Source of the DNA: a virus
IMG/VR virus record: IMGVR_UViG_3300001682_000095
Coordinates: 1 to 40,069 of that record
DNA length: 40,069 nucleotides
Reading direction: 5' to 3' (one strand)
This document shows, one piece after another, positions 2,087-40,069 of the stretch; the stretch's first letter is position 1; each line of letters opens with the position of its first letter. Under the pieces are notes generated by a model. That model was given only the letters and a program-made list of their open reading frames with translations, was not told the DNA's origin and did not search any database. The position numbers and the translations under genes are program-made.

Positions 2087-3245
2087 AAAATGGTTTGGCG
2101 CGTGTAAAGGGCGGCAGGTAGAATATACCCGCCGCCCTTCAGCATTTCAAAAGAGAGGTAAAGGCACATGAGGACATTTAAACATTTTTCATTCAATGAT
2201 AGATTGAGATTAGAGGTTTTATTAAAAGCCGGACACAAACCGGACGAAATAGCCGAAATTTTGCATTTTCATATAAGTACAATATATAGAGAGATAAAAC
2301 GCGGGCAATATGAGGCGTTAAATTCTGATTTAACCACAGAAACGAGATACAGCCCCGATATTGCGCAGGAATATATGAACGGCGTTTTAGCTGCAAAGGG
2401 CGCAGATTTAAAAATAGGCAAAGAAAGAGAATTTGCAGACCGGATAGAGGAAATAATAATAAATGAGGGGTACAGCCCTGCGGCTGCATTGGCAAAGGTA
2501 AAAACAGAGGGTATAGATTTTACGGTATGCGTAACAACCCTATATAGTTACATAGATAAAGGCGTATTTTTAAATTTGACATTGAAAGACCTGCCGGAGA
2601 AACGCAAGGGAGAAAAGCGAACCAAAAGGACAACAACACAAAAAAGAGCATCTAAAGGGGAGAGTATAGAAAACAGACCGCCGGAAATAGAAACGCGGGA
2701 GGAGTTCGGACATTGGGAAATGGATAGCGTAGTAGGTGCGCGCGGCGTTTCTAAAAAGTCTTTATTAGTATTAACAGAGAGGAAAACCCGAAAAGAAATT
2801 ATATTTTTACTAAAAGAACATACAGCGGCAGCAGTTGTAAAGGCATTAGACCGTTTAGAGCGCAAATTAGGCGCAAAATTTCGGGATATATTCAAATCTA
2901 TTACAGTAGATAACGGATCGGAGTTTTCAGATTGGGAAGGCATGGAGCGATCCAAGAGAGCCAAAAAGAAAAGAACCAAAATATATTATTGCCACCCTTA
3001 TAGTAGTTGGGAGCGCGGCAGCAATGAGAACCAAAATAAATTAGTGCGCCGCCACATTCCAAAAGGTGTTAATTTCGATGATAAAACACAAGGCAATATA
3101 GACGATATAACCGAATGGATCAATAATTACCCGCGCCGCATTTTTGAATATAGAACGGCAGAGGAATTATTTAATGAGGAATTAGAGAAAATCGCAGCCT
3201 AAAAAATGAGCATGGCGATATAGTGGTATAAGTGCGCCCATTTTT
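2087..3245 (+). mobile_element. IS30-family insertion sequence (boundaries tentative)
   Basis: Contains the IS30-type transposase gene. AAAATGG..GGCGCG at 2087-2105 weakly matches the reverse complement of 3226-3245. I could not identify direct repeats. Confidence 0.4.
2168..3202 (+). CDS. IS30-family DDE transposase
   Basis: N-terminal HTH (HISTIYREIKRGQY), GHWEMDSV, TVDNGSEF and HPYSSWERGSNENQNKLVRR motifs are typical of IS30 transposases. 344 aa. Confidence 0.85.
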   Translation: MRTFKHFSFNDRLRLEVLLKAGHKPDEIAEILHFHISTIYREIKRGQYEALNSDLTTETRYSPDIAQEYMNGVLAAKGADLKIGKEREFADRIEEIIINEGYSPAAALAKVKTEGIDFTVCVTTLYSYIDKGVFLNLTLKDLPEKRKGEKRTKRTTTQKRASKGESIENRPPEIETREEFGHWEMDSVVGARGVSKKSLLVLTERKTRKEIIFLLKEHTAAAVVKALDRLERKLGAKFRDIFKSITVDNGSEFSDWEGMERSKRAKKKRTKIYYCHPYSSWERGSNENQNKLVRRHIPKGVNFDDKTQGNIDDITEWINNYPRRIFEYRTAEELFNEELEKIAA

Positions 3246-3392: not shown

Positions 3393-3421
3393 TTGACATT
3401 TTTAATGCAAGGTTTTATAAT
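3393..3421 (+). promoter_or_regulatory. Perfect consensus sigma-70-type promoter flanked by CGCATTGAA repeats
   Basis: TTGACA 3393-3398, 17-nt spacer, TATAAT 3416-3421. 9-mer CGCATTGAA at 3382-3390 and 3452-3460, and its inverse TTCAATGCG at 3421-3429. Confidence 0.75.
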
Positions 3422-3559: not shown

Positions 3560-3757
3560 GTGAGAAAACAGTACAAAAAATTAACCTATGCAGACCGGCA
3601 GACAATAGAACACATGAGCGCAGAAGGGAAACCACCTAAAGCGATTGCAACAGCTACCGGCGTACACATCGCAACAATATATAGAGAATTGCAGAGGGGA
3701 GCCGATGCAGAGGGAACATATAAAGCAGAATTAGCGCAGCAGGCATTATTTTGTTAG
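3560..3757 (+). CDS. Stand-alone IS30-type helix-turn-helix protein (transposase N-terminal domain only)
   Basis: GGGAGG RBS, GTG 3560. LTYADRQTIEHMSAEGKPPKAIATATGVHIATIYRELQRG parallels residues about 8-47 of the transposase at 2168. Confidence 0.65.
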   Translation: MRKQYKKLTYADRQTIEHMSAEGKPPKAIATATGVHIATIYRELQRGADAEGTYKAELAQQALFC

Positions 3758-3778: not shown

Positions 3779-3850
3779 GTGCCTTTAGTCTAGTGGATAG
3801 AACACCACCCTCCGAAGGTGGCGGCGCGGGTTCAATTCCCGCAAGGCACA
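3779..3850 (+). tRNA. tRNA-Arg (anticodon CCG)
   Basis: Hand-folded cloverleaf. Acceptor GTGCCTT/AAGGCAC, anticodon stem CCACC/GGTGG with loop CTCCGAA, T arm GCGGG-TTCAATT-CCCGC, discriminator A. No encoded CCA. One mismatch in the D stem. Confidence 0.85.
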
Positions 3851-4301
3851 CTTGTAGCAAGGGCGGCAACCTTGCGGCAGAGGCAGCAGGCTAAAAGCTG
3901 TTATCTGTATACTGTGAAAAAATAGCAGCGGGCGCACCTGCTAGAAAGTGCGTAGACGGTCAACAAGTTTTCAGATGCTTTTTAATGTGAAAAGCACCCC
4001 ACACAGTAAATATAAAAGCCAAAAGGTATTATATGGGAAAAGCAAGAGAACCACCAAAGGAGGAATTGTGAAAGATATATTTTTAGAAAAAAGAATAGAA
4101 AAATAGCCGTTACGTTGGCAGCGTACCGGCTAAAGATTTAATGCAAATGCAATAACTCAATCTGTATAAATTATACCACTTATTGCGTTTGCCGTCAAGC
4201 CAAGAAACGGCGAAGGTAAGCCGTTTTTGGACTTGTTCAAACTATTAACTTTAGGATCCCTAGAGTACAGAAATACAGAAACGCAAAGGGGTGTAATTTA
4301 T

Positions 4302-5119: not shown

Positions 5120-5548
5120 GTGGAAGTAAGTATTTATATTAAGTGCCGTTTTAGAGGCAATCCAAGAGGCGCAGGGGAGGCAGCGGCGGTTATAGAGTAC
5201 ATAGACAAAGGTAGCAACACACATAACCGGCAGCAGCGGATCGAGATTGAAAAGGACACAAAGAACGCTTTATATTTAAAAATTTGCAATGCAGCGATGC
5301 GACTATTATTAAAGCCTTGCAACATCACAATTTTTATAGATTGCGATTACATGGCGAACGCCTGCCGGTTGGGATGGGTGCAAAAATGGCAGCAGGACGG
5401 TTGGAAGAAAGCAAACGGAAAGCCCCCGGCAAATGTTGAGGATTGGAAAGGCTTTTATATACTCACACAGATCCACACCGTAACATTTGAACCATACAAC
5501 GAGAAGTACAACGAGGAATTAGAGGAAATTTTAGGAGGCACAACATGA
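5120..5548 (+). CDS. RNase HI-like protein with substituted catalytic residues
   Basis: GTG start after AAGGTGG. VSIYIKCRFRGNPRGAGEAAAV and IFIDCDYMAN...WVQKWQQDGWKKANGKPPANVEDW align by eye with E. coli RNase HI (IFTDGSCLGNPGPGG; STDSQYV...[20 protein letters not shown]). The first Asp and the Glu positions appear replaced. Confidence 0.5.
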   Translation: MEVSIYIKCRFRGNPRGAGEAAAVIEYIDKGSNTHNRQQRIEIEKDTKNALYLKICNAAMRLLLKPCNITIFIDCDYMANACRLGWVQKWQQDGWKKANGKPPANVEDWKGFYILTQIHTVTFEPYNEKYNEELEEILGGTT

Positions 5549-6277
5549 AATACATGGGTTCCAAAGCGAAAATAGCAAAATTCATAGTGCCGATCATTCA
5601 ACAAAAAATTGATGAAAGCGGCAAAAGAATTTACATAGAACCATTTGCGGGCGGCTGCAATGTGATAGACAAGGTAGAGGCAGATCGGCGCATTGCATCA
5701 GACAAAAACCGGTATTTAATGGCGTTATTTCAGCACCTGCAGGACGGCGGCGAATTGCCGGAACACATAACGCGGGAAGAATACAACAAAGTTAGGGCAA
5801 ATATAAATCAATTTCCGGCGTGGTATGTTGGCGCGGTTGGTTTTCTTGCATCGTATAACGGCAGATTTTTTGACGGCGGCTATGCCGGTTTCGGAAAAGA
5901 TAAAGGCAGGGTTAGGGATTATTACAGAGAAAGCAAAAATAATATTCTTAATCAGATGCAGCAGGGGGGGGATTGCCGGTATAGAGTTTCAAACGCGGGA
6001 TTACAAAGAATTTAGCCCGCAGGGGTGCGTGATATATTGCGATCCACCGTATGAGGGTACAAAACAGTACGGCAACGCAAAAGATTTTGATTATACGGAA
6101 TTTTGGGAAACAATGCGCAAATGGAGTAAACACAACAATATAGTTTTGATTTCGGAGTTACAAGCACCGGCAGACTTTATAACAGTTTGGGAAAAGGAGG
6201 TAGATCGCAGCATGAAAGCAAAAGAGCATTTCAGAGCGACAGAAAAATTATTTATGTGGGGGGGTAGCGATAAATGA
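5545..6277 (+). pseudogene. dam: Dam-type N6-adenine DNA methyltransferase interrupted by a frameshift in a G8 tract (5964-5971)
   Basis: ORF 5545-6015 carries MGSKAKI and EPFAGGCNV (SAM-binding motif). ORF 5825-6277 carries IYCDPPY (motif IV) but has no credible start of its own. A G7 tract would read ...NQMQQGGIAGIEFQTRDYKEF... in one frame. Confidence 0.85.
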
Positions 6278-6741
6278 TTAAGCGAGGCGACATTTATTAT
6301 ATTCGCGACACCCGCCAAAGTATCGGCAGCGAACAGAGAGCAGACAGACCGGCGGTTATTGTTTCAAACGATGCAAATAACAAGCATAGCGGCGTTTATG
6401 AGGTTGTTTACATGACAACACAGCCAAAAACAGACCTGCCAACACATTTTATTACACATTCCGCATTGAAACCGTCAACGGTATTATGCGAGCAGATAAG
6501 CAGCGTTTACGAGGAACGGATCGGAGAATGGATCGGAACGCTGACACTCGAAGAAATGGAAATGTTAAATAAATGTTTGGCGGTATCGGTAGCAATAAAG
6601 CCCGATGCAGCACCGGCAGAAACAGAAAGCCTGCGGCAGCAGGTGGCAGCAGCGTTAGAGGCGCAGCGGGCAGCAGAAAAGCAGGCGGCAACATACAAGG
6701 AAATGTACGAATTTCTTTTAAATAAACAGTTAGGAGCGTGA
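6274..6741 (+). CDS. MazF/PemK/EndoA-family toxin homolog with a roughly 45-aa helical C-terminal extension
   Basis: KRGDIYY, GSEQRADRPAVIVSND, LPTHF, EQISSV and EEMEMLNKCLAVSVAI parallel B. subtilis EndoA (KRGDVYF, GSEQGGVRPVLVIQND, LPTHV, EQIRTI). ATGA overlap with the dam stop. Confidence 0.75.
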   Translation: MIKRGDIYYIRDTRQSIGSEQRADRPAVIVSNDANNKHSGVYEVVYMTTQPKTDLPTHFITHSALKPSTVLCEQISSVYEERIGEWIGTLTLEEMEMLNKCLAVSVAIKPDAAPAETESLRQQVAAALEAQRAAEKQAATYKEMYEFLLNKQLGA

Positions 6742-34051: not shown

Positions 34052-34333
34052 ATGCTAAAAGATCGACTTATGGATTATACGGAAAGCATTGTAAAACGCG
34101 CAACATACACCATTAACGGCGTAGTGAAAGAAGGAACCATTGGCAAGGTTATTAGAAAGGGCGACAGTATTACTTTCTATCTGTATATTGATGATGATAC
34201 GCAGGGTAAGATCACAAATGCCAAATTGTACGATGTAAACGGCGAATTGTTGGAAAGCAAGGATTACAACACACCGAAGGACACATTAGCAACCGCAACA
34301 ATAGGCATTAAGATAACAATTAAGAGAGAATAG
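34052..34333 (+). CDS. Hypothetical tail-fibre-region protein
   Basis: GGAGG RBS, 93 aa. Confidence 0.5.
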   Translation: MLKDRLMDYTESIVKRATYTINGVVKEGTIGKVIRKGDSITFYLYIDDDTQGKITNAKLYDVNGELLESKDYNTPKDTLATATIGIKITIKRE

Positions 34334-34347
34334 GAGGACAAAGTTAA

Positions 34348-34839
34348 ATGTATGATTTGATTTTGTGGAAAAATCGCCGTACTGAAAAAAGTAATACTTA
34401 TGAAGTTACAGAAAACAAAGACGGCACAATCACATTAACGCCGGTAGTTGGGGAAGTAATAGAGGCAGGCACAAGTTTTAACCAAACCAACATGAACCAC
34501 ATGGACAACGGTATAAACGAGGCTATGATCATTGCTAATATGGCTATCGTGCAGCTTTTACAGCATCAGCGGGAATTAGAGAACACATATTTTGAGGTTG
34601 GATCCGTTGAGATTGCAAGTAATGAAAATTACCCATTTAACACCGAAAGCGTAACCGTTGCAATAAAAGACAAGCGCAACACCTTAGATTATGTTGTATT
34701 GGCATATTGTGACGATTTGCAGCAGGGCAGAGCGATCCGGATCAAGGATAAGCAGTTAAACGGTTTCAAAATCGAGGTTGAAGATTGCCCGAAGGAACCG
34801 GTAACAATAAAGTATTTCATTATAGGAGGTAAGTTGTAA
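34348..34839 (+). CDS. Short tail fibre-like protein
   Basis: GTSFNQTNMNHMDNGI matches the common GTxLNAxNLNxMExGI fibre motif. Confidence 0.55.
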   Translation: MYDLILWKNRRTEKSNTYEVTENKDGTITLTPVVGEVIEAGTSFNQTNMNHMDNGINEAMIIANMAIVQLLQHQRELENTYFEVGSVEIASNENYPFNTESVTVAIKDKRNTLDYVVLAYCDDLQQGRAIRIKDKQLNGFKIEVEDCPKEPVTIKYFIIGGKL

Positions 34840-35192
34840 TGGCAAAAGCAACAATCAAGGTAGTAGAAAAGAACGCCGGAAAAAAGATCGGTTATGAGTT
34901 GGACGGTAACACACTTTGGATCGGCGATGCTATCGCAATGAAGTTACACAAATTACAGACAGACGATGTAGTAAGAAAGGATATTTGCGCGGACAAAGAC
35001 GGCAATTTAGTTTTTGGATTGGGCGAAAATTATGTTGCGCAGGTAGAAATTCCACCAAAGGAATACGAGTACATCGAGGGCGAGCCGGACGGCGAAGGAA
35101 AGGCAACATACGAAAAAGTACAGAAAGATTTTGATGCATCGAAATGTACATTAACATTGTGGAGTATTGAGGAGGTATATATCAATGAGTAA
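34839..35192 (+). CDS. Hypothetical tail-fibre-region protein
   Basis: TAATG coupling; 117 aa. Confidence 0.5.
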   Translation: MAKATIKVVEKNAGKKIGYELDGNTLWIGDAIAMKLHKLQTDDVVRKDICADKDGNLVFGLGENYVAQVEIPPKEYEYIEGEPDGEGKATYEKVQKDFDASKCTLTLWSIEEVYINE

Positions 35193-36237
35193 TTATGAAG
35201 ATTTAAGAGGCGCAGCAGCCAACACAGAAATTATTTTAGATGATTTGGGCGTACCTTCAGTAATGGTAAAACAGCCCCTTGTATATTTGGACGAATTAGG
35301 GATCGGAGAGGCGCACACGCCACACCCTGCATTTATTATCAATGATAAAGTAGTACCATACATTTACTTGCCTTCGTTTATAGGCACTATCAAAAACAAC
35401 AGAGCATACAGCCTGCCAAATCAAGATCCGGCAAACTATGTAAATTACGATCGCGCGGTGGAAGTATGCGCAAATAAGGGCGCAGGGTGGCATCTTATGA
35501 CCGGCGCAGAATGGGGATTGGTTCACAACATGATTACAGCAGCGGGAGAAGAACCAAGAGGAAACACAAACAACGGAAGATCACACGTTAAAACATACGA
35601 ACATGGAGTGTTAAGCCCTACAAATCAAAGCGGCGCATATAGAACACTAACCGGAACCGGCGGCAAAACATGGGAGGCTTGCGGCATCAATGATTTAGTT
35701 GGAAATGTCAACAAATGGATCGCGGGCGTAAGATTAGTTGACGGAGAGATCCAAGTTATCCCTAACAACAACGCGGCTATTCACAAAACAGATTTAAAGG
35801 CAAATAGTGCAGCATGGCGCGCAATCCTGCAGGACGGTTCATTTGTGGCACCGGGAACAGCAGGTACACTAAAATTTGATTATTCCGCAGCACCGGCGGC
35901 AAATACAGCGAATTTCTATTTATCAACAACAATAGAAAACAAGCAGACAGAGGAGGCGCACTATGGCTATAAAGATTTTGGAGCATTAACGGCAAAAGCG
36001 GGCGTAACGGTGCCGGATATTTTAAAGGCTTTAGCACTATTCCCTAACACCGACAAAACCGGCAGGGGCGGCTTTTGGATGCGCAACATGGGTGAACGGT
36101 TGCTTATTCGTGGCGGTCATTATGGTCATGGTGCGAGCGCGGGCGAGGCTTGCGGCCGTTTGAACAACGAGCGTTCTCGCTCGTCTGCGCATTTGGGGCT
36201 TTTCCCCGCTTACGTGGATCCTGCGCTTTATGCGTAA
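35185..36237 (+). CDS. DGR target protein: receptor-binding candidate with a C-terminal C-type lectin / FGE-sulfatase-like fold carrying the VR
   Basis: GAGGAGG RBS, ATG 35185. AVEVCANKGAGWHLMTGAEWG is an FGE/CLec-type motif. The C-terminus RLLIRGGHYGHGASAGEACGRLNNERSRSSAHLGLFPA is the VR. Confidence 0.85.
   Translation: MSNYEDLRGAAANTEIILDDLGVPSVMVKQPLVYLDELGIGEAHTPHPAFIINDKVVPYIYLPSFIGTIKNNRAYSLPNQDPANYVNYDRAVEVCANKGAGWHLMTGAEWGLVHNMITAAGEEPRGNTNNGRSHVKTYEHGVLSPTNQSGAYRTLTGTGGKTWEACGINDLVGNVNKWIAGVRLVDGEIQVIPNNNAAIHKTDLKANSAAWRAILQDGSFVAPGTAGTLKFDYSAAPAANTANFYLSTTIENKQTEEAHYGYKDFGALTAKAGVTVPDILKALALFPNTDKTGRGGFWMRNMGERLLIRGGHYGHGASAGEACGRLNNERSRSSAHLGLFPAYVDPALYA
36095..36211 (+). repeat. 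DGR variable repeat (VR)
   Basis: 117 bp collinear with the TR at a constant offset of 632 bp. 12 mismatches, all opposite TR adenines. Confidence 0.9.
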
Positions 36238-36244
36238 TTCTTGT

Positions 36245-36268
36245 GGGTGTATGCGGCAGCATACGCCC
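36245..36268 (+). promoter_or_regulatory. GC-rich hairpin just 3' of the VR (candidate DGR target-recognition hairpin/cruciform)
   Basis: GGGTGTATGC-GGCA-GCATACGCCC: 10-bp stem with one G-T pair and a 4-nt loop, 34 nt after the VR end. Confidence 0.55.
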
Positions 36269-36298
36269 CTATTTTAATTTTGCGAGGAATAAAAGGTA

Positions 36299-36703
36299 AT
36301 GCAAAGAAATTTCAGAGCATCAGCGACACCACCGGAACCAAAAGCCGATCTTTTAATTTTCAAGAAAACAAGAGAAATGATCGCATACGGAAATGAATGT
36401 TTATATAACAAACAATTTCCGAGGAATAGGCGCGTAGGGAATACGATCGGCGCACAAATGGAAAAGACTATGTATGAAATTTTAGAGGGATTGACAGAGG
36501 CAGCAACAAAAGAACATAAGAAAACAGCATTAACGCAGGTTGATGCTAAAATATCATACCTCCGGCAATTACTGATAATTTCGGTAGATCCCAAAATGAA
36601 TACAAAAGGCGGTTTAATTCCACTTGATGATCAAAGAAGGTGGTGCGCGCAGCTAGAGGAAATAGGAAAAATTTTAGGTAGTTGGCTAAATAAGCTAAAA
36701 TAG
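36299..36703 (+). CDS. avd: DGR accessory variability determinant (four-helix-bundle Avd)
   Basis: 134 aa, basic. DLLIFKKTREMIAYGNECLYNKQFPRNRRVGNTIGAQMEKTMYEILEGL matches the Avd pattern. Lies between VR and TR. Confidence 0.8.
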   Translation: MQRNFRASATPPEPKADLLIFKKTREMIAYGNECLYNKQFPRNRRVGNTIGAQMEKTMYEILEGLTEAATKEHKKTALTQVDAKISYLRQLLIISVDPKMNTKGGLIPLDDQRRWCAQLEEIGKILGSWLNKLK

Positions 36704-36726
36704 ATCAACTATGGGGAATATGCCGT

Positions 36727-36843
36727 AACGGTTGCTTATTCGTGGCGGTAATTATGGTAATGGTGCGAACGCGGGCGAGGCTAACGGCAATTTGAACAAC
36801 GAGCGTTCTAACTCGAATGCGAATTTGGGGCTTTTCCCCGCTT
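36727..36843 (+). repeat. DGR template repeat (TR), non-coding
   Basis: Adenine-rich copy of the VR with 10 AAY codons in the VR frame. Lies between avd and the RT gene. Confidence 0.9.
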
Positions 36844-37007
36844 TTCTCAATTAGTCAGCATACGCCGCAACACGCGGGCGGCGTACCGTACAGAGAGAAG
36901 AAAAGGGGCATATTTCCCTTCTTGCGAAAGCGAGAAAAACAAAAATTTCCATGAATACGGCTAGTAGCGAAAGTGAAGGGCGTAACGCATGGAGAAATTG
37001 GGCTAAA

Positions 37008-38120
37008 ATGAAGAAATTTAATATAACCTATGAACAGATCACAAGCTACAACAATATCTATGCAGCCTATTTAGATGCGCGGAAAAGCAAAAGCGAAAGA
37101 AACGAAATTATGCGTTTTTCCTTAGAATTAGATAGCAGTTTAAATAGCTTGTATGAGGAATTGCAGGAGGGGCGTTACAAAGTAAGTGGGTACAGAATTT
37201 TATATATTTATGTACCAAAGAAACGGCTAATTATGGCGTTACAGTTTCGCGATCGCGTGCTGCAATGGGCTATTTATAGGTTGCTTAATCCGATGTATGA
37301 GAAAACTTATATAAAGGATAGTTACGGTTGTAGAAAAGAAAAAGGCAGAGAAAAGGCAGCTAAACGCTTGCAATATTGGTTACGGCAGACGGATAGAAAG
37401 CCAAAACAATATTATTACTTGAAACTTGATATTTCAAAATTCTTTTATAGAGTGGATCACGAGGTATTATTAAACATACTAAAACGCCGGATAAAGGACG
37501 AAAAGATCATAAGGTTGTTTGATAATATCATAAATTCAGAGAAACGAGCCTTCGGGCTACCGTTGGGAGTAGATCCCTGCGAGATAGATCCGCGCGAAAT
37601 GCTATTCGATAAGGGTATGCCAATAGGCAATTTAACATCGCAGATGTTTGCAAATATCTACATGAATGAATTAGATCAGTACCTAAAGCATGAGTTACGG
37701 TTAAAATATGTAATTCGCTACATGGACGATTGTATAATATTGCATGAGAGTAAAGAAGAATTGCGGCAAATATTGGCAAAAGTAGAAGTTTTCCTTCTTG
37801 AAAAGCTAAAATTAAATCTGAATAAGAAAACCGTTATAAGACCAACAACCTGCAATGTTGATTTTGTGGGGTATGTGATAAATAAAGACGAAATAAGATT
37901 AAGATCCGCGACAGTAAAAAGAATGAGATCCCGCATAAAGTACATAGTGAAAGCATACGAGCGCGGCGAAATGACTTTAAAGGAAGTGAACGCAACCATG
38001 CAAAGCTATTTCGGTTTGATGAAACATTGCACAAATGAGGGATTAAAAGAAAACATTATTAACGGTTTTGTGCTGCATTGCACCGATGCAGCGCGAGCCA
38101 AAGCACAAGAAAGCCGATAG
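37008..38120 (+). CDS. DGR reverse transcriptase
   Basis: YYLKLDISKFFYRVDH, GMPIGNLTSQMFANIYMNELD (the IGxxxSQ DGR signature) and IRYMDDCII (YxDD). Start is ATG 37008, or 36951 as in the ORF track. Confidence 0.9.
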   Translation: MKKFNITYEQITSYNNIYAAYLDARKSKSERNEIMRFSLELDSSLNSLYEELQEGRYKVSGYRILYIYVPKKRLIMALQFRDRVLQWAIYRLLNPMYEKTYIKDSYGCRKEKGREKAAKRLQYWLRQTDRKPKQYYYLKLDISKFFYRVDHEVLLNILKRRIKDEKIIRLFDNIINSEKRAFGLPLGVDPCEIDPREMLFDKGMPIGNLTSQMFANIYMNELDQYLKHELRLKYVIRYMDDCIILHESKEELRQILAKVEVFLLEKLKLNLNKKTVIRPTTCNVDFVGYVINKDEIRLRSATVKRMRSRIKYIVKAYERGEMTLKEVNATMQSYFGLMKHCTNEGLKENIINGFVLHCTDAARAKAQESR

Positions 38121-38743: not shown

Positions 38744-40069
38744 AATAGCAGCAAAAGCAGCGGTTATTATTTTCGGTAACGAAGGTAATTATGGCAGCGT
38801 AAATAAAAATGATAATGGGGCGGTTTCTATCGGTAAATTGCAATGGCACGCCGGTAGAGCCGCCGCATTGCTTAGAAACATTATTAAGGCAATCGGAGCC
38901 AACGCGGAAAGTATTATAGGATCCGCGCTTTATGCAGAATTAAAAGGCGGCGCAAGTTGGGGTACACGAACCGTTACGAGCGCAGAGGCAAGCAAGATAA
39001 CCGCAATTTTAACCACCAACGAGGGAAAAGCAGAGCAGGACAAGCAGGCTATTTCCGATGTAACAAGCTACATTAAAAAGGGGCAGAGTTACGGTTTATC
39101 AGATGCGGGCGCACTTATTTATTTTGCAGACGGCGTAAACCAATACGGAACAAATAGCGCATTATGGAAAACGATCGCAACAGAGGCTTTAAAAGGCGCG
39201 GGCGATGTAGGGGCAATGTATAACGCCACTATTAACCATACAAGCAAATATCTAACACGCCGCAAAAGGGTATACGAAAAAGTAAAGGCGTTAGAAATGG
39301 AGGACAGCATGACAGAAAAACAGTTAAGAGCAAAGGCAGTAGCGCAGGCGGTTGCGTGGGTTGGCTGCAAGGAAAGCAACGGAACACACAAACAGATCAT
39401 TGATCTTTACAATTCTGTAAAACCCCTGCCGAGAGGGTACGCGGTACAATATAATGATGCGTGGTGCGCAACATTTGTAACCGCCGTAGGAATTGCCGCC
39501 GGATTGAGCAATATTATTTTGCGCGAGTGCGGTTGTCAAAAAATGATCGAACTTTACAAAGCTGCAGGGCGTTGGCAGGAAAATGACGGCTATACACCAA
39601 GCGCGGGCGATGTAGTATTTTATGATTGGCAGGACAACGGCAAGGGCGATAATACCGGATATTCCGATCATGTCGGTATTGTACACAGCGTAACCGGCAA
39701 TACAATTAAAGTAGTTGAGGGCAACAAAAACAACGCCGTAGAATACAGAAATTTAACCGTAAACGGTAGATACATTAGGGGTTACGGTTTACCGGATTAT
39801 GCAAGCATGGCAACAGCAGAGGAACCAAAGGCACCGGAAACAACAAAGAGCGTTGCAGAGGTAGCGAAGGAAGTATTAGCCGGTAAATGGGGCAATGGAA
39901 CCGCTAGAAAGGCAAAATTAGAGGCGGCAGGCTATAATTATGCGGAAGTGCAGGCGGCGGTTAATACTTTAGTAAAGGGCGGATCCGGATCAAGCACAAC
40001 ACCTGCAACATATACGGTAAAAAAAGGCGACAATCTTACAAAGATTGCAAAGAAATTTAATACAACCGT
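38730..40069 (+). CDS. Multidomain endolysin (N-terminal lysozyme/GH46-like domain, CHAP/NlpC-P60 domain, CW_7 repeat, LysM); 3' end continues at 1-164
   Basis: ATG 38730 overlaps the holin stop, and there is no stop codon before the window end. CHAP motifs NDAWCATFV, SDHVGIVHSV, VVEGNKNN. CW_7 motif GKWGNGTARKAKLEAAGYNYAEVQAAVN. Confidence 0.85.
   Translation, partial: MTTNEIAAKAAVIIFGNEGNYGSVNKNDNGAVSIGKLQWHAGRAAALLRNIIKAIGANAESIIGSALYAELKGGASWGTRTVTSAEASKITAILTTNEGKAEQDKQAISDVTSYIKKGQSYGLSDAGALIYFADGVNQYGTNSALWKTIATEALKGAGDVGAMYNATINHTSKYLTRRKRVYEKVKALEMEDSMTEKQLRAKAVAQAVAWVGCKESNGTHKQIIDLYNSVKPLPRGYAVQYNDAWCATFVTAVGIAAGLSNIILRECGCQKMIELYKAAGRWQENDGYTPSAGDVVFYDWQDNGKGDNTGYSDHVGIVHSVTGNTIKVVEGNKNNAVEYRNLTVNGRYIRGYGLPDYASMATAEEPKAPETTKSVAEVAKEVLAGKWGNGTARKAKLEAAGYNYAEVQAAVNTLVKGGSGSSTTPATYTVKKGDNLTKIAKKFNTT
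39982..40069. repeat. Terminal overlap, copy 2 (identical to 1-88)
   Basis: Direct reading shows identity with 1-88. Confidence 0.9.

Follow-up and report, generated by a model that had tools for sequence, protein, structure and literature searches.

The window analysed here is a stretch of viral DNA of 40,069 nucleotides, covering positions 1 to 40,069 of the IMG/VR virus record IMGVR_UViG_3300001682_000095. The region of interest lies at positions 35185-38120 and contains, in this order and on the plus strand, the target gene, avd, the template repeat (TR) and the gene for a reverse transcriptase (RT). With high confidence, these parts constitute a complete diversity-generating retroelement (DGR) that diversifies a TaqVP-type C-type-lectin (CLec) protein of the phage tail module. 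The target (variable protein) gene (35185-36237) encodes 350 aa and is the last gene of the tail/baseplate block. Its 3′ part contains the variable repeat (VR; 36095-36211), and is followed by avd (accessory variability determinant; 36299-36703), the TR (36727-36843), a structured spacer RNA (36841-36992) and the RT gene (37008-38120). An earlier reading of the letters (the original prediction) had placed this cassette between a baseplate module and the lysis genes of a contractile-tailed phage, and this placement holds: Baseplate_J, Mu gp48-like and YqbQ-like genes lie on one side and holin and endolysin genes on the other, in a phage with sheath and tube genes.

The TR is a non-coding repeat of 117 nt containing 26 adenines. 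A direct base-by-base comparison reproduced the TR and VR coordinates, the length of 117 nt for each repeat and the ungapped alignment at an offset of 632 that had been proposed earlier. The two repeats differ at 12 positions, and the TR base is an adenine at all 12 of them: six are A>C changes (TR 36750, 36759, 36789, 36810, 36817 and 36822), four are A>G changes (36769, 36784, 36790 and 36811) and two are A>T changes (36783 and 36816). These are exactly the changes listed in the original prediction, in which the TR adenines had been put at about 26, and the computed alignment contains no mismatch at a non-adenine TR position. The probability that 12 random mismatches would all land on the 26 adenines among the 117 TR positions is P = 1.3e-9. 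The TR/VR pair is the largest repeat of the region. Its last 21 nt are identical in both copies, with complete divergence after 36211/36843, and the common 3′ 19-mer TTGGGGCTTTTCCCCGCTT occurs in only two copies within the window. A scan ignoring the A positions detected no further VR on either strand of the window. Immediately 5′ of the two repeats, a stretch of 16 nt agrees at 9 of its 16 positions, with mismatches at non-A positions, and was counted as outside the repeat.

The VR codes for target residues 304-343 of the 350. Read in the target frame, the TR contains 10 AAY codons, and the VR encodes H, H, S, C, R, R, S and H in place of 8 of them, as had been counted before. Of the 26 TR adenines, 25 fall at codon position 1 or 2, and no stop codon is reachable by A-substitution at any of the 15 A-containing TR codons. 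Hence 15 codons, including the 10 AAY codons, are recodable in the C-terminal, presumed ligand-binding face of the target, giving approximately 7e14 protein variants, all of them stop-free. One further feature of the repeat is a terminator-like hairpin, GGGG-CTTTT-CCCC followed by CTTTTCTC, at TR 36826-36840 (VR 36194-36208). It is specific to the window; relatives carry GGGGCTGTTTTCC at this place and show no such fold. Because it is not conserved in relatives, it was excluded from the functional parts.

The RT is encoded most likely at 37008-38120, giving 370 aa. The longest open reading frame (ORF) starts at 36951 and would give 389 aa. This start was rejected, since its counterpart in more than 10 relatives either lies out of frame or runs into a stop codon, whereas the ATG at 37008 (MKKF), with GGAG 13 nt upstream, is conserved, and gene callers applied to the relatives also give 370 aa. 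The best match of the RT in the PDB is the Bordetella bRT (8ub7; E 5.5e-41, 144 bits), compared with approximately 78 bits for group II intron RTs, and the RT matches the PHROG family phrog_1423 at 3e-133. DGR RTs are recognized by [I/V/L]GxxxSQ in place of QGxxxSP, together with YxDD. The RT of the window contains IGNLTSQ (I225-Q231) and YMDD (residue 257), the two motifs noted in the original prediction, and bRT is its closest solved relative. In addition, R92 and I225 of the RT align with R74 and I181 of bRT, the two bRT residues shown to promote adenine mutagenesis.

An alternative would be that no DGR is present, and that a duplication diverged by chance beside an unrelated group II, retron or defence RT. 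The best named NCBIfam match of the RT is indeed a group II intron RT/maturase (137.6 bits), and PADLOC returned only generic RT and UG17 matches. However, all NCBIfam matches are far below the curated cut-offs (group II RT/maturase 137.6 vs 300, retron 50.8 vs 235, DRT 56.2 vs 200), and the score of bRT is double that of the best group II RT. An Rfam search of the window detected no group II intron or retron RNA; its single match was RT-14, the motif of the spacer described below. The restriction of mismatches to adenines, at P 1e-9 in the window, also recurs in 27 distinct cassettes. The alternative is thus refuted for practical purposes.

The 134-aa protein encoded between the VR and the TR (pI 9.63) had been described as Avd-like. 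This was borne out by the Pfam family PF22296 bAvd, which it matches at 61.2 bits (cut-off 40), and by the PHROG family of Avd proteins of DGRs (2.2e-19).

The behaviour of the cassette at the level of the lineage was examined in relatives. With the RT as query, 17 viral and 19 genomic loci were found, most of them from gut Clostridia (Lachnospiraceae, Acetatifactor, a metagenome-assembled genome (MAG) of Borkfalkiaceae and a Clostridiaceae isolate), and exact-protein look-ups added more. Nearest deposited phage RTs are less than 50% identical to that of the window, and megablast of the cassette DNA found no match among 50,697 phage records. In all, 28 cassettes were placed in register, corresponding to 27 distinct TR/VR pairs with 17 distinct TRs and 27 distinct VRs. 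Across the 27 distinct pairs, the cognate VR has a different base at 315 of 692 TR adenines (45.5%), compared with 21 of 2467 other bases (0.85%), and over half of these 21 changes come from two decaying copies, L004 and L023. The value of 45.5% is close to the misincorporation of bRT at template adenines, which has been measured at approximately 52%. Lineage-specific non-A alleles of the TR are mirrored in its own VR in 208 of 219 cases, which shows TR-to-VR transfer after the TRs diverged. In L046, a single T>C change in the TR is accompanied by the same C in the VR.

Comparisons among cassettes with the same TR are more direct. Two cassettes from other samples, L044 (SRR33718333) and L045 (ERZ28633746), contain a TR identical to that of the window at 117 of 117 positions, within cassettes that have an overall identity of 95.3% and 97.8%. 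Between TR and VR they show 11 and 12 differences, respectively; all of these are at adenines, and the patterns are unlike that of the window. Likewise, L001, L003, L038 and L040 have another identical TR in common and four different VRs. The variation test suggested in the original prediction, namely that VR variation should be confined to sites opposite TR adenines, was therefore passed, on related assemblies rather than on reads. The same pattern is visible in the proteins. When the columns of 82 full-length family proteins are ranked by entropy, the 10 AAY positions take the first 10 places (3.03 vs 0.44 bits), and 817 of the 820 residues at these positions are within the 15 amino acids encoded by NNY. 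The target of the window belongs to a 13-member cluster at 90%, and the sister clusters P0019, P0028, P0094 and P0013 contain 8521, 617, 398 and 327 distinct sequences, respectively. Such large counts would be expected with VR variants particular to each sample.

These data bear on whether the element of the window could be a fossil, active in its ancestry and inert in this copy with a frozen VR. The evidence from the window is at assembly level, the terminator-like hairpin at the 3′ end of its TR is specific to it, and decay is seen in two relatives. In L023 (5092-5831) the TR is down to 19 adenines and there are 6 non-A mismatches; L004 (353-1093) also has 6 non-A mismatches, and its VR contains a block matching the TR of another lineage, L002. 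Both copies look decaying or recombined. In the window, by contrast, the three ORFs are intact, the catalytic and signature motifs are conserved, there are no non-A mismatches and the cis RNA elements are all intact. Moreover, the same TR (117/117) occurs in the two other samples with VRs that differ only at A-sites, amid flanks that are 2-5% diverged, indicating a turnover more recent than the divergence of the strains. We consider a fossil very unlikely, and the cassette of the complete DGR was very probably active recently in its lineage.

The stretch separating the TR from the RT is occupied by a structured RNA. A cmscan search identified positions 36841-36992 (+) as Rfam RF02921 (RT-14), with 74.3 bits over the full-length model (gathering score 48.1). 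The RNA begins at the last 3 nt of the TR, and comprises a helix at the TR end, P1 (36843-36848 with 36895-36900), an inner hairpin (36861-36868 with 36878-36885), a short stem-loop with a GAAA loop, P2 (36920-36935), an A-run (36935-36945) and P3 (36949-36992), all on the plus strand. In 18 of 18 related loci scanned, RT-14 abuts the 3′ end of the TR. In an 18-sequence alignment, compensatory changes were found in 20 of 38 pairs, and 84.9% of cells were paired, compared with 38-58% in slid controls. This count used an explicit structure derived from Rfam, and RNAalifold on a plain MAFFT alignment gave only P2, P3 and part of P1. The 38 pairs also took in, as helix 4, a local GGGG/CCCU hairpin at 36905-36919 that has since been superseded; it was dropped because a long-range duplex with 36713-36724 explains the conserved stretch better.

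This duplex brackets the TR. Its 5′ strand (36713-36724, +; GGGGAAUAUGCC) ends 2 nt before the TR, and its 3′ strand (36907-36918, +; GGCAUAUUUCCC) is a stretch that is conserved but unpaired in the Rfam model. The 12 bp consist of 11 Watson-Crick pairs and one G-U pair. The duplex was found in 25 TR units, as 14 distinct sequence pairs with many compensatory changes, for example UAUGCC/GGCAUA, UGCGCC/GGCGCA and the wholly different GGGAGUAAAUC/GGGAUUUACUUCC. Its mean dG is -22.3 kcal/mol, compared with -9.9 kcal/mol for shuffled partners. In L027, an Acidaminobacter MAG, two tandem units of TR plus RT-14 (5439-5687 and 5710-5963) precede one RT, each with its own compensated duplex. In L028 (3533-4854), a distant relative with an RT that is 37% identical, the TR and RT-14 are located downstream of the RT and the VR precedes the TR by 2.5 kb, and in L029 (1130-2451) RT-14 is likewise 3′ of the RT. 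These arrangements indicate that the RNA motif travels with the TR and not with the 5′ end of the RT gene. Among the RT motifs of Weinberg et al. (2017), only RT-10 was tied to a DGR, that of BPP-1, and the others were speculated about (PMC5737381); a literature search linking "RT-14" with DGR returned nothing. As judged from the sequences compared here, RT-14 appears to be the DGR spacer RNA of this clade, which would give this orphan Rfam motif a concrete role.

The prototype for such an RNA is the DGR of the Bordetella phage BPP-1 (mtd-avd-TR-brt). Cryo-electron microscopy of its ribonucleoprotein showed a TR:Sp template:primer duplex (Sp 47-56), an avd:Sp "cPRT Stop" (Sp 59-70), a stem-loop and A-minor adenosines (bioRxiv 10.1101/2023.10.23.563531). 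The spacer of the window has the same order: a strand pairing with the 3′ end of the TR approximately 50 nt downstream, a duplex with sequence upstream of the TR, a short stem-loop and adenosines. The 3′ strand of the duplex at 36907-36918 mirrors the avd:Sp "cPRT Stop" of BPP-1 by position. In the window the upstream strand of the duplex lies in the gap between avd and the TR, whereas that of BPP-1 lies inside avd; the spacer of the window is RT-14 and that of BPP-1 is RT-10. By its structure and covariation, the RNA layout is of a kind that would support cis-primed reverse transcription, with the priming itself proposed by analogy with BPP-1. The nucleotide A36901, beside the 3′ strand of P1, is our guess for the priming nucleotide.

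The sequence following the VR differs from that following the TR. The VR-only downstream segment (36212-36244, +) codes for the C-terminal YVDPALYA and the stop codon of the target (36235-36237), is absent beside the TR, and is nearly invariant at the nucleotide level in 21 relatives. It is a candidate for a determinant, like the sequence for initiation of mutagenic homing (IMH), that marks the VR as recipient. It is followed by a GC-rich hairpin/cruciform (36245-36268, +; GGGTGTATGC-GGCA-GCATACGCCC) with a 10-bp stem, a 4-nt GGCA loop and then a T-run, located 33 nt beyond the VR's end and 7 nt past the target stop. This hairpin is kept in 21 of 21 relatives with a loop of GGCA or GACA, and in L016 the stem contains one compensatory change. 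In phage DGRs, the consensus for such hairpins combines a GC-rich stem of 7-10 bp, a GRNA loop of 4 nt and a distance of 4-34 bp from the VR upstream, and in BPP-1 the hairpin is required for target recognition (PMC3240598). The hairpin of the window fits this consensus on stem, loop and distance. With its T-run, it also resembles a terminator.

From these elements the following route of diversification is proposed. An RNA covering at least 36712-36992, holding the TR and the structured spacer, would be transcribed and bound by a complex of the RT and Avd. By analogy with BPP-1, the spacer would fold back onto the 3′ end of the TR through P1, and the 12-bp duplex with the sequence upstream of the TR would bracket the template. 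The cDNA would then be primed in cis near the 3′ end of the TR and would halt at its 5′ end, again as in BPP-1. The RT would be faithful at C, G and U and would misincorporate opposite A. Finally, the mutagenized cDNA would replace the VR at 36095-36211, the recipient being marked by the sequence found only downstream of the VR and by the hairpin with the GRNA loop (36245-36268).

The protein that is diversified resembles TaqVP, the variable protein of a Thermus aquaticus prophage DGR, which is monomeric and single-domain with an FGE-subtype CLec fold and solvent-exposed variable residues (5VF4; PMC6328139). The target matches 5VF4 with E 2e-60 over residues 21-344 at 36% identity, with VR aligned on VR, and this was the single solved structure matched. 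An AlphaFold model of the target, built from 50 homologues, has a mean pLDDT of 91.8; a fold search with this model returned 5VF4 as the best match (TM 0.90), followed by TvpA, PvdO and Mtd. The FGE/C-type-lectin-like C-terminus proposed in the original prediction is thus well supported at the level of fold, with the Pfam FGE-sulfatase match of the target alone being below threshold. A total of 1462 homologues of the target were found. Its best PHROG match, phrog_2889 (4.5e-94), is a family without an assigned function, and a secondary match is to phrog_5302, a "tail protein" family (1.7e-14).

What this protein does is suggested by the position of its gene. The target gene overlaps the preceding ORF (34839-35192) by 8 nt and shares its strand with the baseplate genes, and every relative whose gene content was examined, as well as the cultured phage Saumur, has the gene order baseplate J, gp48-like, three small ORFs, target. 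Because the target ends the baseplate block, and because this place is conserved in the relatives and Saumur, a receptor-binding role is the best inference: the target is most likely a receptor-binding protein of a contractile-tailed temperate phage of gut Clostridia. The earlier designation of the gene as a tail-fibre gene stands as far as its position at the end of the tail module is concerned; no fibre or trimerization domain was recognized, and phrog_2889 gives no function to back the name.

It has to be considered here that the DGR could be functional and its target something other than a virion receptor-binding protein, for example a surface or secreted binder expressed by the lysogen or a protein of the lysis stage. 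The target is single-domain and TaqVP-like, lacking a recognizable fibre, collar or trimerization domain, TaqVP itself is monomeric with an unknown ligand, and phrog_2889 is without function. The gene also comes last before the lysis cassette, with a terminator-like hairpin behind it. However, the shared strand and the 8-nt overlap with the preceding ORF are as in a single late operon, the synteny with the baseplate genes is kept in the examined relatives and Saumur, and the phrog_5302 match is to tail proteins. A non-virion target is therefore considered unlikely, and a receptor-binding protein at the end of the baseplate block is the reading retained below.

Several observations weigh against the interpretation as a complete, active DGR acting on a receptor-binding protein. 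At the template, the terminator-like hairpin at 36826-36840 and its T-run could in principle cut the TR RNA ahead of the spacer. Two TR adenines, 36727 (the first base) and 36778 (GAG, Glu321), are invariant in the VRs of 21 relatives, whereas the other adenines vary freely; selection on the protein is presumably the simplest account, or else a boundary effect. At the recipient, no (GC)14-type IMH as in BPP-1 was found, and the determinant that distinguishes donor from recipient is proposed only indirectly, because the last 21 nt of the two repeats do not differ. As for the proteins, Avd scores 71.2 bits against NCBIfam DivGenRetAVD, under the equivalog cut-off of 80, and phmmer of Avd against PDB sequences (E<=1) matched no solved Avd, so that its identity is drawn from profile hidden Markov models. 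The placement of the RT comes from pairwise scores and motifs rather than a tree, with libraries used without a dedicated DGR-RT model. The three small ORFs ahead of the target (34052-35192) match nothing of known function, no fibre, collar or trimerization domain was recognized in the single-domain target, and the receptor-binding or tail-fibre role is deduced from gene position only. Finally, ongoing diversification of this copy is inferred from assembly evidence at the level of the lineage.

How does this DGR compare with known systems? In BPP-1, as in the window, the order is target, avd, TR and RT, the VR is at the 3′ end of a CLec target and the differences are confined to A. Its bRT is the best solved relative of the RT, which shares the IGxxxSQ motif with it and has the equivalents of its R74 and I181, and a GC-rich GRNA-loop hairpin follows the VR. 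Unlike the window, BPP-1 has the (GC)14 IMH; its Mtd matches the target of the window only weakly in the fold search, and the host of the window phage is a Gram-positive gut anaerobe. TaqVP and the target are homologous over the full length; in each, the fold is FGE-subtype CLec, the VR occupies the very C-terminus and the DGR is that of a prophage, with avd-TR-RT. They differ in phylum, temperature regime and VR sequence. TaqVP cannot settle the function here, because its ligand and its place in the virion are unknown too. In a survey of DGRs, the avd-TR-RT core corresponds to architecture B1 (PMC5758913); the window has this core plus a CLec/FGE-type target.

By its RT, the closest deposited phage is Clostridium phage Saumur (ON453901), a cultured phage with Enterocloster clostridioformis as host. 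Saumur shows the same synteny of baseplate, small ORFs, a 355-aa target, Avd, TR, RT and lysis genes, mismatches only at A (14/14) and a GGTA-loop hairpin after the VR. In contrast, its RT and target are 48.5% and 38% identical to those of the window, respectively, its spacer is below the RT-14 gathering score, and the record annotates no TR or VR. Other DGRs of temperate gut phages, such as those of Hankyphage, crAss-like phages and Faecalibacterium phage Lagaffe, also generate diversity in tail or receptor-binding proteins. The window differs from these in its lineage and in that its element is on an IS30-bounded phage. RT-14 always starts at the 3′ end of the TR in relatives of the window, and the long-range pairing is an addition outside the Rfam model.

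The phage that contains the DGR is represented by a circular contig of 39,981 bp, as deduced from the identity of window bases 1-88 with 39982-40069. The endolysin ORF (38730 to 164) spans the contig junction. The structural genes include those for the small and large terminase, portal, a ClpP-type protease, capsid, sheath, tube and tape measure. They are followed by tail-end genes (LysM/Dit-like, YqbQ-like, sheath-initiator, baseplate-J and Mu-gp48-like), and then by the three small ORFs, the DGR, holin and endolysin. The early region contains ParA (strong), ParB_N (weak, below the cut-off), Rep_ORF2/G2P, SSB, MazF and Dam. The MazF/PemK-type toxin gene is located at 6274-6741, and a tRNA-Arg(CCG) at 3779-3851 lies beside the end junction described below. 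A G8 tract (~5964-5971) divides the gene for a D12-class adenine methyltransferase (5545-6277) into two ORFs that overlap. The methyltransferase gene of the related locus L042 (99.3% identical) has G7 and is intact with 243 aa; the G8 tract represents a homopolymer subject to phase variation or else an error in sequencing.

The mobility of this phage appears to depend on an insertion sequence. A full-length IS30-family transposase gene (2168-3202) is accompanied by a truncated copy containing only the helix-turn-helix (HTH) part (~3566-3700), located 360 nt downstream of the transposase across the circle junction. The IS30 transposase is the only recombinase: a scan of the ORFs, which covered the small ones in part, gave no tyrosine or serine recombinase. 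In L038 and L039, an identical transposase is followed by chromosomal genes, transketolase and glycosyltransferase in one and rpsO-pnp in the other, corresponding to two integration sites. In L040, L042 and L043, the HTH ORF and Rep come after an identical transposase, which is also the arrangement of the window. The homology to the integrated copies (L038 and L039) breaks at window position 3404/3405, the right prophage end. This break lies inside the spacer of a promoter with perfect consensus, TTGACA (3393-3398), 17 nt and TATAAT (3416-3421), and a perfect 12-bp inverted repeat (3380-3391/3420-3431) flanks the junction promoter. The -35 element is on the right end and the -10 element on the left end, and the promoter points into the HTH ORF, the tRNA-Arg and the Rep genes. 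Judging from this arrangement of the ends, the promoter would exist only in the circular form.

A similar organization has been described for the "IScream" phages of gut Clostridia: one prophage end has a full-length, outward-facing IS30 transposase and the opposite end a truncated copy, other integrases are absent and the sites of integration vary; the text of that study draws no link to DGRs (PMC12823448). The phage of the window has a full and a truncated IS30, no other recombinase among the ORFs scanned and two integration loci. The original prediction had described the phage as plasmid-like. ParA, the weak ParB_N, Rep and the circular contig are in line with this description, which is made doubtful by IS30 as the only recombinase and by integration of the same phage at two loci; a megablast of the first 25 kb against a plasmid collection gave only a 122-nt match in the ClpP-protease gene. 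Since an identical transposase ends the same phage at two chromosomal sites, the window fits better as the excised circle of an IS30-mobilized temperate phage than as a phage-plasmid.

What does this element add to the family of DGRs? The DGR of the window is clean but ordinary: tens of thousands have been catalogued, with gut phages as the richest source, and DGRs of this design are already abundant in gut phages, to which the window adds a further member. Its value lies in being a well-resolved case in a Gram-positive gut phage lineage with a cultured relative, Saumur, and in the series of cassettes from independent samples with the same TR and different VRs. Three aspects go beyond the routine, namely RT-14 as a DGR spacer RNA, the covarying TR-bracketing duplex, and a DGR on an IS30-mobilized phage with an end-joined promoter. 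The cis-priming RNA layout of BPP-1 is conserved with covariation in Clostridia phages, and this conserved layout is what gives the orphan motif RT-14 its concrete role. The link between a DGR and an IS30-mobilized phage may interest phage ecologists more, as the determinants of the broad host range of IScream phages are an open question. Taken together, these features suggest a combined picture, which we offer tentatively and regard as possible rather than probable. The DGR would be carried on the excised circle of an IScream-type phage, with RT-14 as the cis-priming "Sp" RNA of its clade, and the end-joined promoter would turn on the genes for replication upon excision or entry. A hypervariable receptor-binding protein (~7e14 variants), together with low-specificity integration by the transposase, may underlie the unusually wide distribution of this phage lineage across Lachnospiraceae, Christensenellaceae-like and Clostridiaceae-labelled genomes.

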